Assembly (NCBI GenBank): GCA_964499635.1
Contig: CAZCLY010000013.1
Coordinates: forward strand, 62,329-126,328
Direction of reading: 5' to 3'
Source: an uncultured Gemmatimonadota bacterium
GTDB taxonomy: Bacteria > Gemmatimonadota > Gemmatimonadetes > Palauibacterales > Palauibacteraceae
DNA length: 64,000 nucleotides
The position numbers and the translations under genes are program-made. Shown here piece after piece: positions 2,573 to 12,877 of the stretch (the first letter of the stretch is position 1; each line of letters begins with the position of its first letter). The notes beneath the pieces were generated by a model. That model was not told where the DNA came from. It saw nothing but the letters and a program-made list of their open reading frames with translations, and searched no databases.

Positions 2573-5035
2573 ATGCGCCGAGGCGTATACGTGGCAACCG
2601 AGCTCGACCGACTCACCGCGGGCCTCTCCGACCGCTACCGCCTGGTGCGCGAGCTCGGCCGGGGCGGCATGGCCACCGTCTACCTGGCCGAGGACCCGAA
2701 GCACGGACGGAGTGTCGCCGTCAAGGTCCTGCGACGCGAGCTGGCGGCCACGCTCGGGGCCGACCGGTTCCTGCGCGAGATCGCGATCGCCGCCAGGCTC
2801 ACCCACCCGAACATCCTGCCGCTGCACGACTCCGGAGAGGCCGCCGGGCTGCTCTACTACGTGATGCCGTTCGTCGAGGGCGAGTCGCTCCGCGACCGGC
2901 TCCAGCGCGAGAAGCAGCTTCCGGTGGACGAGGCGATCCGGATCGCGCGCGAGGTGGCGGCGGCCCTGAGCTACGCCCACGGGCAGGGAGTGATCCACCG
3001 CGACATCAAGCCTGAGAACATCCTCCTGTCGAGCGGTCAGGCGGTGGTCGCCGACTTCGGCATCGCTCGCGCCCTGTCGGTCGCCGCGGGGTCGACCCTG
3101 ACGGGGACCGGCATCGCCCTCGGGACCCTCGGCTACATGAGTCCCGAGCAGGCGAGCGGAGAGACCGACCTCGACGCCCGCGTCGATGTGTACGCCCTCG
3201 GGTGCACGCTGTACGAGATGCTGGCAGGCGAGACGCCGCATACGGGCGGCACCGTGCAGGCCCTCCTGAACCGCATGCTGACCGAGCCGGTGCGACCGCT
3301 GCACCCCATCCGGGAGACCGTCCCGCCGGCCCTGGACGACGTGCTGGGGAGGGCCCTGGCGCGCACGCCGGCCGACCGTTTCCCGACCGTGTCGCGGTTC
3401 GCCGACGCGCTCGCGCACGTATCGACGATCAGCGCGGCCGAGGGGGCGATGGGTTCGGGCCGCGCGCGCGGCGCGGAGGGTTCGGGGAGGCGGTGGCGTG
3501 TCGCGCTCTCCACCGCCGCGGTCGTCGCGGCCGTCGCGCTCGGAGGCTGGATCATCGGATCGAACGTTGGCCGGGGCGCCGGATCGCCGTCCTACCGGCG
3601 GCTCGCGGTGCTCCCGCTCGACGACGTGAATCGCGACACCGCGCAGGACTACTTCGTGGACGGGCTGACCGATGCCCTGATCGGCACGGTGGCCCAGATC
3701 GGTTCGCTCGAGGTCATCTCCCGCACCTCCGTCATGCAGTACCGGGGCACGGACAAGACGCTCCCCGAGATCGGGCGCGAGCTGAACGTGGATGCGGTGG
3801 TGGAAGGGTCCGTGTCCCGCTCGAGCGGACGCGTCCTCGTCCGCGTGCACCTGGTGGACGCCCGCACCGATGCGCAGCTCTGGAGTCGGGACTACGATCG
3901 CGAGCTCGGCGACATCCTCCTCCTCCAGAGCGAGATCGCCCGGGAGATCGCGCGCCACGTGGACGCCCGGCTCACGAAACGCGAGTCGGATCGGCTGGCC
4001 GCCGCGGAGGCGGTGAACCCGGAGGTGCACGAGGAGTATCTGCGCGGGCGTTTCCAGCTCGAGCCGCGCACTCCGGACGGCTTCCGCGAGGCCCTGGACC
4101 ATTTCCGCCAGGCGCTCCAGCTGGATCCGACCTTCGCCCCGGCCCACGCCGGCCTGGCGGACTACTACCGGCTGCTGCCGTTCTACGACAACGTCACGCC
4201 GGCCGAGGCGTTCGGCAGGGCCAGGGCGGCGGCTCTCAAGGCGCTGGAGCTCGACCCGTCGCTGGGGGTGGCGCACGCGGCGCTGGGGTATGTCGTGGCC
4301 TACGCCGACTGGGATTGGGCGCAAGCGGAAGGGGAGCTCCGCCAGGCGCTCGAGCTCAACCCCAACGATGCCGATACCCACCACGCCTACAGCCGGCTGC
4401 TGGCCGGACTCGGCCGGCTGCCGGAGGCCGAGGTGGAAGCGCGGCGTGCCGACGAGCTCGATCCGCTGTCGCTGGTCGCGCACGCGAACCTGGGGGTGAT
4501 CTCGTACTTCGGGCGGGACTACGCCCGCGCCGCATCGCAGCTGGAATCCACGCTCGAGATCGATCCCGACTTCCCGGTCGCGCACTGGGGTCTGGGACTC
4601 GTGAACGAGCAGCTCGAACAGTACGACCAGGCCGTGGCCGAGTTCGAGAAGGCCATGGCGCTCGCGGGACGCGGCGTGAACAGCCTCGCCTCGTTGGCAC
4701 ACGTCCTCGCCGTCGCGGGGCGCACGACGGAGGCGGAGGCGGTGCTCGACGAGGTGCTCGAACGCACACGCACCCGGCATGTATACTCGTATCAGGTCGC
4801 GCTCGTGTACGCGAGTCTCGGCCGCGCCGACGAGGCGTTCGACTGGCTCGAGCGCGCGTACGAGGAGCGGTCGCCGATGTTGAGCTACGCGAAGCAGGAT
4901 CCCCGCTTCGACGATCTGCGCTCGGACGCCCGGTTCGCGGACCTGCTCCGCCGGGTGAACCTGGCACCACCGGCGGTGGTGCGGCAGGACGCCGCCCCGC
5001 CCGCCGGAGCCGCGGACGGGTCATCCGTCCGCTAG
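2573..5035 (+). CDS. serine/threonine protein kinase with C-terminal TPR repeat domain
   Basis: Hanks kinase motifs: GRGGMATVYLA, VAVK, HRDIKPENILL, DFG, SPEQ. A TM-like segment follows (WRVALSTAAVVAAVALGGWII). The C-terminal half is TPR-like (repeated A..Y.RAL.L.P... units). Confidence 0.85.
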   Translation: MRRGVYVATELDRLTAGLSDRYRLVRELGRGGMATVYLAEDPKHGRSVAVKVLRRELAATLGADRFLREIAIAARLTHPNILPLHDSGEAAGLLYYVMPFVEGESLRDRLQREKQLPVDEAIRIAREVAAALSYAHGQGVIHRDIKPENILLSSGQAVVADFGIARALSVAAGSTLTGTGIALGTLGYMSPEQASGETDLDARVDVYALGCTLYEMLAGETPHTGGTVQALLNRMLTEPVRPLHPIRETVPPALDDVLGRALARTPADRFPTVSRFADALAHVSTISAAEGAMGSGRARGAEGSGRRWRVALSTAAVVAAVALGGWIIGSNVGRGAGSPSYRRLAVLPLDDVNRDTAQDYFVDGLTDALIGTVAQIGSLEVISRTSVMQYRGTDKTLPEIGRELNVDAVVEGSVSRSSGRVLVRVHLVDARTDAQLWSRDYDRELGDILLLQSEIAREIARHVDARLTKRESDRLAAAEAVNPEVHEEYLRGRFQLEPRTPDGFREALDHFRQALQLDPTFAPAHAGLADYYRLLPFYDNVTPAEAFGRARAAALKALELDPSLGVAHAALGYVVAYADWDWAQAEGELRQALELNPNDADTHHAYSRLLAGLGRLPEAEVEARRADELDPLSLVAHANLGVISYFGRDYARAASQLESTLEIDPDFPVAHWGLGLVNEQLEQYDQAVAEFEKAMALAGRGVNSLASLAHVLAVAGRTTEAEAVLDEVLERTRTRHVYSYQVALVYASLGRADEAFDWLERAYEERSPMLSYAKQDPRFDDLRSDARFADLLRRVNLAPPAVVRQDAAPPAGAADGSSVR

Positions 5036-6989: not shown

Positions 6990-9332
6990 TTGTCCGAGAT
7001 CCCGCGCGACGCCTCCCGGGTCGACCCCGGACGCGAGGGTGCGGGCGGCGGGGCCGGGTCCGAGGCGGGGTCGGGCGATGTGAACGACACTCCCCGGCAG
7101 ATCGGCCCCTACAGGATCCTCCGAACGCTCGGCGAGGGAGGGATGGGGGTCGTGTACGAGGCCCGACAGATCGAGCCCGTGCAGCGGCGCGTCGCCCTCA
7201 AGATCATCAAGCTCGGCATGGACACGAAGCAGGTCGTCGCCCGCTTCGAGGCCGAGCGCCAGGCCCTCGCGGTCATGGACCATCCCTTCATCGCCAAGGT
7301 CCTCGATGCGGGCGTGACCGAGACGGGCCGTCCGTACTTCGTCATGGAGCTGGTCAACGGGGTTCCCCTGACCGAGTACTGCGACGCGCAGAAGCTCGCC
7401 ACCGACCAGCGGCTCGAGCTCTTCATCCAGGTGTGCGCCGCGGTCCAGCATGCCCATCACAAAGGGGTCATCCACCGCGATCTCAAGCCGAGCAACGTCC
7501 TGGTCTCCCTGCAGGACGGGAAGCCGGTGCCGCGTGTGATCGACTTCGGGATCGCGAAGGCCGTGGGGCAGGACTTCACCGACCGGACACTGGTCACGCA
7601 GCTCGGCCAGATGGTGGGGACGCCCGAGTACATGAGTCCGGAGCAGGCCGAGATGTCGGGCATCGACGTCGACACCCGGACCGACATCTATTCGCTCGGC
7701 GTGATGCTGTACGAGCTCCTGGTGGGCGCGCTTCCCTTCGACCTGCGCGGCGTATCCGACATCGCCAGGCAGACCACGATCCGGGAGAGGAACGCCCCCA
7801 CGCCGAGTGCCCGGCTCACGACGCTCTCCGGAGAGCAGCAGGAAACCGTGGCCCGGTATCGTCATACCGATCCCGGAACGCTCAAGACGGCGCTCAAGGG
7901 GGACCTGGATTGGGTGGTGATGCGGTGTCTCGAGAAGGACCGGACGCGACGATACGAGACGGTCAATGCCCTCGCCATGGAGCTCGGGCGACACCTCGAT
8001 GACCAGCCGGTCCTCGCCCGGCCGCCGAGCACGAAGTACCGCCTGCAGAAGTTCGTGCGCCGGAACAGGACCGCCGTGATCGCCGCGTGCGTCGCGGGGC
8101 TCGCCATCTCGGGTGGAGCCGTGGCCGCCACCATCGGGATGGTGAAGGCGCGGCGCGCGGAGACGCGGGCCGAGCGGGAGTCGGCCACGGCCAAACAGGT
8201 GTCGGAGTTCCTCGAGGATCTGTTCGAGGTGAGCGATCCCAACGAGGCGCTCGGGAACACGATCACCGCCCGGGAGCTCCTGGATCGTGGAGCGGCGCGC
8301 ATCGAGGACGAGCTATCCGGCCAACCGCTGGTCCAAGCGCGGATGATGGCCTCGATGGGCGAGGTGTTCCGGAAGCTCGGGCTGTACGACAGCTCGCTCC
8401 CGCTGCTGGAGCGGGCCCTCGCCCTCCGGGAGCGGGAGCTGGGAAGCGACGACCTCGAGGTCGCCGCCAGCCTTCACCAGCTCGCGACCCTGCACCGTTA
8501 CCGGGGGGAGTACGACGCGGCGGAAGAGCTGTACAAGCGCGCGCTCGCCATCCGGGAGCGGAGGCTGGGGCCGAATGACCTCGATATGGCGACCAGCATC
8601 GGAGGTCTGGCCGGACTGTATCTGAGGCGGGAGCGATACGCCGAGGCCGAACCGCTGCTCCGGCGCGAGCTCGCAATCCGCGAAACGGCGCCCGGATCGG
8701 ATGAGCTCGACATGGCGACCACGCTCTCCGACCTAGGGGTCCTGTACTGGGGGCAAGGAGAGTACGCGGCGGCCGAGCCGTTCTTCGAGCGATCGGTCGA
8801 GATCCGGGAGTCGAAGCTCGGTCCCGACGACCCCACTGTCGCCTCGGCGTACAACAACCTCGGCGCGCTCTACTGGTCACAGGGGAAATACCAGGAGGCC
8901 GAGGGCGTCTACGAGAAGGCGAGGCGGATCTTCGAGAAGACGCTGGGGCCCGAGCATCCGCGGGTGGCGGGGATCCTCAACAACCTGGCGGAGACGGCCT
9001 GGGCGTTGAAGCGGTACGATGAGGCCGATTCGTTCTTCACGCGCTCGCTCGCGATCAAGGAACGAACCCTGGCGACGGATCACCCGAGCGTGGCGATCGG
9101 CCTGAACGGGCTGGCGAATCTGCGCCGCGATCAGGGCCGGTTCGCCGAGGCGGAATCCCTGTACCGGAGGGCGCTCGACATCCGGGAACGAGTGTTCGGA
9201 CCGGACGGCGGTCCGGTGGCGGAGACGCTCGAGGGGATGGCCGACCTTCTCCGGCGGGTGGATCGGACGGACGAGGCCGACAGGCTGGCAGCTCGGGCGC
9301 TCGACATCCGGACGTCGGCGAAGGACCGCTGA
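6990..9332 (+). CDS. serine/threonine protein kinase with C-terminal TPR (TPR_12-like) domain
   Basis: TTG start 10 nt after GGAGG. Kinase motifs: [36 protein letters not shown]-like segment [24 protein letters not shown]. The C-terminus has about 8 TPR-like repeats (LYRRAL.IRE..LGP.H). Confidence 0.85.
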
Positions 9333-9453
9333 CCAGAGCGTGCCGCGCCCGTGCGTGGCGGTCCGGACCTGGTGGTCGACCGGTCTTCGACGGCCTTCGA
9401 CACGGGGGGTGGCGGCCCGCACACGGGCAGGGCGTGCAGCGCACGCGGACCGA

Positions 9454-11094
9454 TCAGCCGCTCGGGAGGGACGCGATGAACTTCCCCACCAGCTGGAGAA
9501 TCGCCCCCTCGTACTCCCAGCTTTCCGCCGGTCCGAGGCGGTAGAGGGGGTCGGCGGCGGTGACGACAAGCATGTCGAGGTCGTGCAGCAGGACGATCAG
9601 ATTGCCGCCGTGTCCCCAGGCGAAGTCGAATCGGTGCTCGCCCACCCTCGCGGACCACCACTGATATCCGTAGGCGATGTTTCGAAGATAGGGGCCCATA
9701 TAGTTGTCGGAGTCCCGCCGCCAACGGTCGTCCCACATGCCCGTGGAATACGCCTGCAGGGACTCTCCGACCCAGTCCGCGGGGAGGACGCGAGTGCCCT
9801 CGTACTCACCTCCACGGAGATAAAGGAGGCCGAACTTGGCCATATCGCGAGGTGTAACGGAGATCTCGAACGAGCCGAAGTTGTAGCCATCCGCGTCGCG
9901 GGTCCAGCTCCCTAGCTGGGCGCCGAGCGGTGCGAACAGGGTTCGCTCGGCGAACGATTCGAGTGTCGTGTCGCACGCCCGCGCGACGATGATCCCGAGG
10001 ATGTGGGACGTCAGGTTGCTGTACCCGAATCCCGTGCCCGGATCATTGCTCAGAGGGAAGTCGACGAGGTGGGGGAGCCAGCGCAGGTCGCCGGTCGCGA
10101 ACAGGATCTCGGCATACGGCGGCTCGCGTTCCTCCCAGGGATATCCGGCGCGCATCTGGAGCAGCTGCCGGATCGTGATCCGCTCCTTCCGCGGGTCCGT
10201 GATCCGCCCGGCGAGCTCTGGGAAGAAGTCCATCATCCTCTGGTCCAGGCTCGCCAGGCATCCCCGATCGAGCGCGATGCCGACCAGCGCCGAGGTGTAG
10301 CTCTTGGTCACGGACTGAACGACGTTCTTCCGCTCCACCCCCCCATCGTTGAAGTATCCTTCCGCGATCAGTCGGCCGTTCTTGACGACCAGGACCCCGT
10401 TCAGGGTCGACAGCTCGGCGGCATCGAGATACAGCTCCGCCACGAGCGCCGGATCCAGCCCTTCCTCGCGCGGCGTGGACACGCTCCAATCGGCGCCCGG
10501 GAGCGGCGCGTATTCGACCCTCTCGAGATCCTCGGCACGAGGGTGCAGCATCGCCGCGATCCGGGGACGGGTCCTGCGGATCTGTTCGTAGTCGAGTTGC
10601 AGCCCCAGCGGCCCCAGGGCCTCTCCGAGCAGGTCGTAGATCCCCCTGGCATCCTCGAACGGAGCGGCGACGGCGTCGAACGGTGTCTGGCCCTCGTGGT
10701 CGCGGGCATACCTGTCGGCTCCCCCGTCCAGCAGGGCCCGCACGATCTCGACGCGGCAGAGGAACGCGGCGATGTAGAGCGGGGTGGCTCCGTCGTCGTT
10801 GGCGATCTCCAGGTCGACTCCCGCTTCGATCAACGCACGGGCTACCTCCACCCTGCCGAACGTGGCCGCGATGATCAGTGGCGTGGAGCCGTACCGGTCC
10901 CTCGCGTCCAGGTCCGTGCCCGCCGCGATGTGCCGACGAACGCCCTCGAGGTCTCCGCGCAGGGCCGCCAGGTGGAGGTCCACGCCCGGGGGCTGTTGCC
11001 TCGCGGCTGCGAGCGGACGCGACGCCACGAGCAGGACCGCCAGGGCCGCGCCGAGGAGCGCCGTCACGCCACGTCCCCCGAGCCGGGGGCTCAT
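9454..11094 (-). CDS. secreted ankyrin-repeat / beta-lactamase-family serine hydrolase fusion protein
   Basis: Start chosen at MSPRLGGRGVTALLGAALAVLLVASRPLAAA, a signal peptide; ATG 11094 follows GGAG. Ankyrin repeats (GSTPLIIAA..G..E....LI.AGADL, three units). C-terminal domain carries an SxxK motif (SVTKS) and YxN-like features of beta-lactamase/PBP-like esterases. The N-terminal 182 codons of the track ORF are not protein-like. Confidence 0.75.
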   Translation of the reverse strand: MSPRLGGRGVTALLGAALAVLLVASRPLAAARQQPPGVDLHLAALRGDLEGVRRHIAAGTDLDARDRYGSTPLIIAATFGRVEVARALIEAGVDLEIANDDGATPLYIAAFLCRVEIVRALLDGGADRYARDHEGQTPFDAVAAPFEDARGIYDLLGEALGPLGLQLDYEQIRRTRPRIAAMLHPRAEDLERVEYAPLPGADWSVSTPREEGLDPALVAELYLDAAELSTLNGVLVVKNGRLIAEGYFNDGGVERKNVVQSVTKSYTSALVGIALDRGCLASLDQRMMDFFPELAGRITDPRKERITIRQLLQMRAGYPWEEREPPYAEILFATGDLRWLPHLVDFPLSNDPGTGFGYSNLTSHILGIIVARACDTTLESFAERTLFAPLGAQLGSWTRDADGYNFGSFEISVTPRDMAKFGLLYLRGGEYEGTRVLPADWVGESLQAYSTGMWDDRWRRDSDNYMGPYLRNIAYGYQWWSARVGEHRFDFAWGHGGNLIVLLHDLDMLVVTAADPLYRLGPAESWEYEGAILQLVGKFIASLPSG

Positions 11095-11561
11095 CTCCGG
11101 GCCTCCGCGAGGGGATCGACGTGGGCCCTGAAGCCGGGGTCCGAGTCCGGGCCCTTGATCTCCCAATACAGCCGGTTGTCGGGCGTCTCCAGGGTCCCAC
11201 CCACCCACGCCGCGAGCTCCTCCGACCAGCCGCGCCGGCCGAAATCCGCCTCGTGCCCCAGCCAGATGAGCCACAGATGCCGCTCCCACAGGACCGCCTC
11301 CTCCGGCGTGAGGCCGTATCGCTCCGTCAGGGCCCGGGGCAATGGATCGGTCCCGTCGACCGCCTTGATCTTCGCCAGGACCGATGACAATCGCGGCGAT
11401 GAGAAGAAGGAGGTGTTCAACGCGGAGGCCCGATCGAGATCCGCCCGCCACTCGAGCGCCCGCGTGTTCCCTTCGACCTCCAGGATCAGGAAGACCAGCG
11501 TCACGACCATCGCGAAGCTGGCGACGATCTCCGCGCCGTGCGCCCAGGCCTGAAGCTTCAT
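11091..11561 (-). CDS. small hypothetical membrane protein (156 aa)
   Basis: Start at MKLQAWAHGAEIVASFAMVVTLVFLILEV, with GGGAG RBS 7 nt upstream. Its stop overlaps the start of the ankyrin/beta-lactamase gene (ATGA), suggesting co-translation. The upstream part of the track ORF 11091..12434 is a shadow of nfo. Confidence 0.5.
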   Translation of the reverse strand: MKLQAWAHGAEIVASFAMVVTLVFLILEVEGNTRALEWRADLDRASALNTSFFSSPRLSSVLAKIKAVDGTDPLPRALTERYGLTPEEAVLWERHLWLIWLGHEADFGRRGWSEELAAWVGGTLETPDNRLYWEIKGPDSDPGFRAHVDPLAEARR

Positions 11562-11827
11562 GACATGGCTCCCAGCTGAGGTGTCGCCGTCCGGCAGGAG
11601 AGAGGTCCGGGTTCGCAGGGACCTGCCACCCGCCGGGCACCCCGACCGAGCGGAAGCCGCGCGACGCGAGCTCAGCGGTGTCCCGACGTCGCCGGGGTGA
11701 GCGGTGCGTGCTCCCGAAAGGTACTCGAATCGAGGCCGGCCTGCCCCCGGATCGGGCCGCCGGGTCGGGCCCGCGGACCCGCCGGCGCGCTGCGCCCGCC
11801 GACGGGATCCTCCGGGGCGACGTGACC

Positions 11828-12691
11828 TCAGTCGCGGAGGCCGCGCAGCAAGCCCAGGTTCATGACGTCGAAGGTGAGTGGGCTGTCCTCCTTGGGTGTC
11901 TCGAGGAGCTTCGGCACGCCCGCGAAGCGCTCGTCGTTCATGAGGAGCCGAAACGGCTCGGTGCCGAGCGTTCCCCGGCCCAGGTGCTCGTGTCGGTCCC
12001 GGCGCGAGCCGAGCGGGTGCTTCGAGTCGTTGACGTGGAACAGGCGGAGCCGTTCGAGCCCGAGCGCGTCGTCGAAGCGCGTCCATACGCCCTCCCAGTC
12101 GCCGGCGAGGTCGTAGCCGGCGGCCCATGCGTGGCAGGTGTCGACGCACACACGGACCCGCGTCGCGAGGTGGCGGGGGAGGGCGCTGATGATCTCCGCG
12201 AGCTGCACGAACGATCCGCCGATGGACGTGCCCGATCCGGCCGTCAGCTCGAGGAGGACCGGCGTCGAGCCGCCGACCCGCTCCAGCGCACCCGTCAGCG
12301 CTTCGGCGTTCCGGGCCACCCCCGATGCAAGGTCGCCGTCGGTCGCGTTCCCCGGGTGGGTGACGAGGAAGTCGAGCCCGAGCATCGATGCGCGCGCCAG
12401 CTCGCCCTCGAAGGAGCGGAGCGACCGCTTCCACAGCGCCCGGTCCGGTGACGCCAGGTTGATGAGGTAGGAGTCGTGCGCCCCGGCCACGCGGATGCCG
12501 TGCGCCTCGCGGGCGCCCTTGAAGGCCTCGCAGGTCGCGTCATCGAGGGTCGGCTCGGCCCACCGCTGGGGCTGCTTGGTGAACAGCTGGAGACATGCGC
12601 ACCCGATCTCGACAGCGCGGCCCGGGGCCTTGTCCACGCCGCCCGCGGCGGACACGTGCGCGCCCAGCTCATCGGGGCTCGAGACTGGCAC
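11828..12691 (-). CDS. nfo: endonuclease IV (AP endonuclease family 2)
   Basis: Strong collinearity with Nfo: GAHVSAAGG, DSYLINLAS, HPG, CVDTCHAWAAGYDL, LFHVNDSK, HEHLG. GTG start at 12691, 7 nt after GGAGGG, gives a 287-aa product. The rest of the 1241-aa track ORF is a shadow of the plus-strand ADOP gene. Confidence 0.85.
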   Translation of the reverse strand: MPVSSPDELGAHVSAAGGVDKAPGRAVEIGCACLQLFTKQPQRWAEPTLDDATCEAFKGAREAHGIRVAGAHDSYLINLASPDRALWKRSLRSFEGELARASMLGLDFLVTHPGNATDGDLASGVARNAEALTGALERVGGSTPVLLELTAGSGTSIGGSFVQLAEIISALPRHLATRVRVCVDTCHAWAAGYDLAGDWEGVWTRFDDALGLERLRLFHVNDSKHPLGSRRDRHEHLGRGTLGTEPFRLLMNDERFAGVPKLLETPKEDSPLTFDVMNLGLLRGLRD

Positions 12692-12877
12692 CTCGGTTCC
12701 CTCCGTCGGGTCTCGGCCGGGAGCGGGGTCCCGGGGACGGAAGTTCGGGACCCCGCAGGATGTTCGACCGGGAGTGTGCCGGCGCGGGTCGCCCCTCGCC
12801 ACCACCGGATGAAACCACCCCGCCGGCGCAGCCGTAGTTCCCGCGTGTCCGCACCTCGACCCGAACGGACTAATCCC

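Follow-up and report, generated by a model that had tools for sequence, protein, structure and literature searches.

An exported ankyrin-repeat serine hydrolase from an uncultured Gemmatimonadota bacterium is a member of a widespread, uncharacterised orthologous group

The window analysed here, a stretch of 64,000 nucleotides from an uncultured Gemmatimonadota bacterium, contains a genuine gene for an exported ankyrin-repeat (Ank) serine hydrolase, which belongs to an orthologous group that is known from databases and uncharacterised. The explanation that we regard as probable on the whole is that its product is an Ank-tethered, periplasmic ester or amide hydrolase of the envelope. In this enzyme, which is predicted to be Sec-exported, sequence and model show that a two-helix linker, itself conserved, connects a four-repeat Ank module with a catalytic domain of the S12 / PBP-beta-lactamase fold, an acyl-serine hydrolase. 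The enzyme would act through an acyl-enzyme intermediate and cleave esters or amides among the compounds of the envelope or the environment. The Ank module would serve as a protein-binding tether or positioning device, which brings the enzyme to a conserved partner or substrate in the envelope and acts instead of a membrane anchor or, in a minority of forms, alongside one. In the Ank-less orthologues, a lipidated Cys or transmembrane (TM) segments would keep the catalytic domain at the membrane.

The original prediction placed the locus at positions 9454-11561, which span both of its genes correctly (Table 1), and regarded a 728-aa version of the hydrolase ORF as misleading on account of its non-coding-like first 182 codons. 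Both judgements hold. GC3 amounts to 0.85 in the 546-aa CDS vs 0.52 in the 182 codons upstream, and the small ORF, read in its own frame, reaches 0.90. Similarly, the homologues among the matches listed are 498-576 aa long (mostly 530-546), and the public gene call on an identical contig (L003) is 546 aa. Judged from these features, high GC accounts for the 728-aa ORF, which is an artefact, and the short, 546-aa start is correct.

Table 1. Features of the hydrolase locus and its upstream neighbourhood (positions are those of the window)
Feature	Position	Strand	Basis or remark
Ank-serine hydrolase CDS, 546 aa + stop	9454..11094	(-)	translation, GC3, homologues
Sec-type signal peptide (predicted), residues 1-31, MSPRLGGRGVTALLGAALAVLLVASRPLAAA	11002..11094	(-)	inspection, hydrophobic segment 9-31
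Ankyrin module, residues 38-145: 3 canonical repeats + beginning of C-cap repeat	10660..10983	(-)	
Conserved helical linker, residues 146-200	10495..10659	(-)	AF2 helices, conservation, Ank-less N-termini
S12 / beta-lactamase-fold serine hydrolase domain, residues 201-546	9457..10494	(-)	
SxxK box S261-V-T-K264 (nucleophile Ser, general-base Lys)	10303..10314	(-)	invariant 53/53
Y358-S-N360 box, second catalytic motif	10015..10023	(-)	Y358, S359 invariant; N360 49/53
H495-G-G497 box, at KTG/HTG box position on strand beta3	9604..9612	(-)	invariant 53/53
ATGA stop/start overlap, translational coupling (predicted)	11091..11094	(-)	ORF coordinates
156-aa all-alpha protein, one N-terminal TM helix (about residues 7-32)	11091..11561	(-)	no Pfam family
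Intergenic region, 266 nt, nfo-like gene to small ORF, presumed promoter	11562..11827	(-)	ORF map
nfo-like gene, AP_endonuc_2	11828-12694		Pfam

A signal peptide had been proposed ahead of the Ank module, and inspection reveals the expected n-h-c layout with R4 and R8 in the n-region, a hydrophobic core (residues 9-25) and an AxA cleavage site between A29-A30-A31 and R32. In the AlphaFold2 (AF2) model, residues 1-34 have a pLDDT <50, with a helix at 10-21, and in homologues the equivalent position is taken up by a signal or lipobox sequence. No Cys, and hence no lipobox, occurs in residues 1-112 upon inspection of the translation, so that the window protein is not a lipoprotein. By inspection and from the model we predict that it is Sec-exported via an SPase-I type signal, and it is probably a soluble periplasmic enzyme.

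The three clear ANK units of the original prediction are well supported, because all Pfam ankyrin profiles (PF12796/PF00023/PF13637, with their curated gathering thresholds) score above threshold: 63.8 vs 27.3 bits for Ank_2, 63.6 vs 22.7 for Ank_4 and 57.7 vs 21.1 for Ank. A fourth, C-cap repeat can be added to them. The window protein displays stacked helix-turn-helix repeats of about 33 residues, and sequence and model together give four predicted ankyrin repeats, i.e. three canonical ones and the C-cap. The linker comprises the cap repeat's second helix, a helix at 169-183 and the segment 'EDLExVEYxPLPG', which in Ank-less orthologues follows immediately after the lipidated Cys. Its modelled helices (146-163 and 169-183) reach a pLDDT of about 80-90. 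The whole-chain AF2 model, in which the linker is confident, has a pTM of 0.77, which suggests that the Ank module and the hydrolase are held in a fixed inter-domain arrangement. Mean pairwise identity is 0.61 in the Ank module vs 0.585 in the hydrolase. Within the module, conservation is uniform over the 21 aligned sequences, with no contrast between putative binding-surface and framework positions.

The serine-hydrolase domain with its SVTK motif was likewise recognised correctly: PF00144 matches residues 234-497 (E 3.6e-26, 92.5 bits vs a cut-off of 27), and the fold agrees with that of solved PF00144 / MEROPS S12 members. In an alignment of 53 orthologues from 53 species the motifs are almost entirely invariant (Table 1), and by sequence and model the predicted catalytic set of Ser261, Lys264, Tyr358-Ser-Asn and His495-Gly-Gly is complete. 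A third box of the HxG type is known in S12 peptidases, e.g. in R61 (HTG) and in Ochrobactrum DAP.

The design of the protein had been taken as unusual, a view that does not survive comparison with databases. More than 120 protein clusters share the Ank-hydrolase architecture, aligning over 91-100% of the query, and orthologues with 49-69% identity retain the domain order and motifs of the window protein. Relatives are encoded in 304 species genomes. Eighty genome loci were examined in detail, and 54 of them, from at least eight phyla, carry the Ank form; carriers include Gemmatimonadota, Spirochaetota, Planctomycetota, Bacteroidota, Deinococcota, Myxococcota, Alphaproteobacteria and others, among them the cultured Rhodohalobacter sulfatireducens WB101, Algoriphagus sp. 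SE2 and Zhengella mangrovi X9-2-2. Because the same design is found in bacteria of so many phyla, the window protein is an ordinary member of its family. In NCBI the homologues are labelled 'serine hydrolase', and in JGI 'CubicO group peptidase (beta-lactamase class C family)'. The listed matches include no protein identical to that of the window, because its cluster is represented by a 48-aa fragment. From the database family (Ank + PF00144) the window protein differs in nothing substantive: it bears an SPase-I signal where some members have a lipobox, and the adjacency of its gene to the small ORF is specific to its lineage. Our literature search found no paper that links ankyrin repeats with PF00144 enzymes in bacteria.

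The proposed role of the Ank module is derived from a pattern in the N-termini of the family. In raw counts that ignore kinship, all 22 complete Ank-less orthologues are membrane-anchored, 19 by a lipobox Cys right before the conserved 'PSTEDLEAVDYTP' segment and the remaining three by an N-terminus with a zinc ribbon and a TM segment, and this anchor occupies the exact point at which Ank forms bear the Ank module. Among the 54 Ank forms, counted in the same way, a canonical lipobox is present in about eight, a non-canonical 'PLPVC' followed by G in about 14 (the Cys is substituted in close relatives) and a Cys confined to the hydrophobic core in about seven, while Cys is absent altogether from about 25 and from the window protein. 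If the 'PLPVC' signals were true lipoboxes, about 22 of the 54 Ank forms would be lipoproteins as well. The related locus L006 possesses both lipobox and Ank module, so the latter is not simply a replacement of the anchor. In a crude NJ tree, in which some 'noANK' labels (L034, L076) are contig-end truncations, Ank and Ank-less forms are interleaved on short internal branches. As the anchor lies at the Ank attachment site and conservation is as high in the Ank module as in the hydrolase, we propose a tether or positioning device; the original suggestion of a scaffold that would direct the enzyme to a partner is plausible and draws some indirect support from the anchor-vs-Ank pattern. We put forward only tentatively, as possible but rather doubtful, that the Ank module docks the PBP-fold hydrolase on a conserved envelope protein in place of a lipid anchor, or gates the active site in cis after the fashion of Bd3460 (see below).

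Several other explanations were weighed against tethering. The fused Ank module could cover the hydrolase cleft as a built-in counterpart of Bd3460, with release by partner binding or by Ank removal. Such cis-autoinhibition has a precedent in Bdellovibrio, where Bd3460 is a periplasmic ankyrin self-protection protein for the DD-endopeptidases Bd3459/Bd0816 and its repeats bind over the active-site cleft of these PBP-fold enzymes, which are thereby sterically blocked (PMC4686830). It would also fit the conservation of Ank module and linker, which equals that of the catalytic domain, and the fixed arrangement that the model suggests. However, Bd3460 acts on enzymes of another type than S12, and ORF clustering of the 80 loci disclosed no obvious separate inhibitor gene near the Ank-less orthologues; we consider gating on its own unlikely. 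A resistance determinant, i.e. a class C-like beta-lactamase or penicillin-binding protein, is more improbable still. The PF00144 match would allow for it, and PIB-1 of P. aeruginosa, described in paper titles as an imipenemase, is among the nearest solved relatives (25-27% identity), so that weak beta-lactam turnover by the window enzyme is possible. The class C (AmpC) identity was nevertheless rejected, since the NCBIfam equivalogs stay far below their cut-offs (bla_class_C 17.9 vs 415 bits, PNC class C 16.6 vs 750) and the third box is HGG, not KTG. PBP4B (32.1 vs 385 bits) and AmpH (18.4 vs 266) do not reach theirs either, nor does the best NCBIfam match, NF045925 (3-succinylated cholic acid synthase; 90.2 bits vs 800). 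The assignment of the hydrolase to the beta-lactamase family (PF00144) stands, and those to class C and to PBP4B/AmpH fall; on sequence grounds, the window enzyme is not a class C beta-lactamase. The top structural neighbours are esterases and amidases, and because the nearest characterised relatives act as such on non-beta-lactam substrates, ester or amide hydrolysis is expected rather than beta-lactam resistance. Least probable of all, and hardly to be expected, is that the protein is secreted as an effector against host cells, whether eukaryotic or not. The Ank effectors of Legionella and Coxiella are typical of most studied bacterial ankyrin proteins, and the repeats do match Dot/Icm Ank effectors weakly in NCBIfam, but these matches (16-45 bits vs cut-offs of 500-1400) reflect the generic repeat. 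The Sec signal peptide of the window protein and the lipoboxes of its relatives speak against this role, as do the carriers (MAGs and isolates from many phyla, whose names are of a free-living type) and the neighbourhood, in which no secretion-system genes were found.

It is about as unlikely as gating that the hydrolase forms a two-gene unit with the 156-aa membrane protein encoded upstream, which would then be its receptor, anchor or regulator and offer its helical domain for binding by the Ank module. The overlap of the two genes that had been noticed at 11091-11094 is real: the hydrolase ATG (11094-11092) overlaps the TGA of the small ORF (11093-11091), and GGAGG lies 7 nt upstream of this ATG. 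From this arrangement the two genes are predicted to be co-transcribed and translationally coupled here. A promoter scan of 9200-12000 found no sigma-70-like site, so the promoter assigned to the intergenic region is presumptive only; the terminator scan of the same interval gave a single terminator-like match, within the small ORF and on the wrong strand. The small protein belongs to a real conserved family, and a homologue adjoins the hydrolase in L006, on the same strand and with a gap of 40 nt. This is, however, the only one of 80 other-species loci with such adjacency (tblastn + profile HMM), the gene order is reversed with respect to the window, and L006 is the window's sister in the crude NJ tree, so that the shared adjacency counts as one evolutionary event. 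Moreover, in the MAG JAJDNI01 both genes occur on separate contigs (L016, L085), and eight other lineages of the small protein have unrelated contexts without hydrolase, the neighbours being Acyl_transf_3 (twice), an M19 peptidase, an amidohydrolase, ODP, MacB/PadR, a kinase and an outer-membrane barrel. The charge distribution (one K+R on the N-side of the TM helix vs three on the C-side) weakly favours a cytoplasmic C-terminal domain, and a domain so located could not contact a periplasmic Ank module. The small protein was thus rejected as a family-wide partner and is not supported as a meaningful one; it is retained only as a lineage-specific alternative. As far as the 80 loci indicate, the arrangement is lineage-specific, i.e. 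restricted to the lineage of the window and L006.

The neighbouring kinase, proposed as a possible partner, was discarded as well. Its gene is convergent with that of the hydrolase at a distance of 121 nt, a similar kinase lies near the hydrolase in only one of the 80 loci (L038), and a second, paralogous kinase-TPR gene at 2573-5035 of the window indicates that such kinases are simply abundant here; by these comparisons the kinase appears as an unrelated neighbour. All-vs-all ORF clustering of the 80 loci recovered no conserved neighbour gene and no operon context, but only the hydrolase with its shadow ORFs; an oxidoreductase-like ORF in 13 loci formed the next largest cluster.

Taken alone, the locus adds another copy to a family that public annotation already describes as a serine hydrolase having both Ank and Beta-lactamase domains. 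The value lies in the family, which is uncharacterised and occurs in hundreds of species from at least eight phyla, with both modules strongly conserved and the catalytic motifs intact. Bacterial ankyrin repeats have been studied mostly as host-directed effectors, and a housekeeping periplasmic role, in which they tether or gate an envelope hydrolase, would widen this effector-centred picture. If docking or gating were true, this would be the first natural family of Ank-PBP-fold enzymes in which an ankyrin repeat controls the place or timing of an envelope hydrolase, and such control would be found in free-living bacteria of many phyla. Work on it could also uncover a new substrate in the envelope, much as EstG pointed to periplasmic glucans.

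The nearest solved structures are Lsa45, NylB and EstG, from which the substrate cannot be inferred, identity to Lsa45 being only 25-28%. Lsa45 of Leptospira interrogans (342 aa), according to the title of its PDB entry (8dc1) a penicillin-binding protein with esterase activity, has neither ankyrin module nor helical linker. The nylon-oligomer amidase NylB/EII, a 6-aminohexanoate-dimer hydrolase (PDB 1wyb and others), and the family VIII carboxylesterases (4ivk, 7pp3, EstB 1ci8) share 19-23% identity with the window protein and are single-domain enzymes without Ank; its export is a further difference of the window protein. EstG of Caulobacter crescentus (PDB 7uda/7u1b; 17-19% identity), an esterase of periplasmic glucans (bioRxiv 10.1101/2022.04.12.488081), likewise lacks an Ank module, and no OPG genes were found near the window gene in the ORF map or by neighbour clustering. 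The ORF map also contains no separate Ank gene near the window hydrolase that could form a pair of the Bd3460 type. Bd3460 itself is the only characterised case we found of a periplasmic Ank protein that works with a serine enzyme of the PBP/beta-lactamase fold; it is a separate polypeptide of six repeats with PBP4-type targets and serves inhibition or immunity in a predator, whereas in the window protein four predicted repeats are fused to an S12 enzyme.

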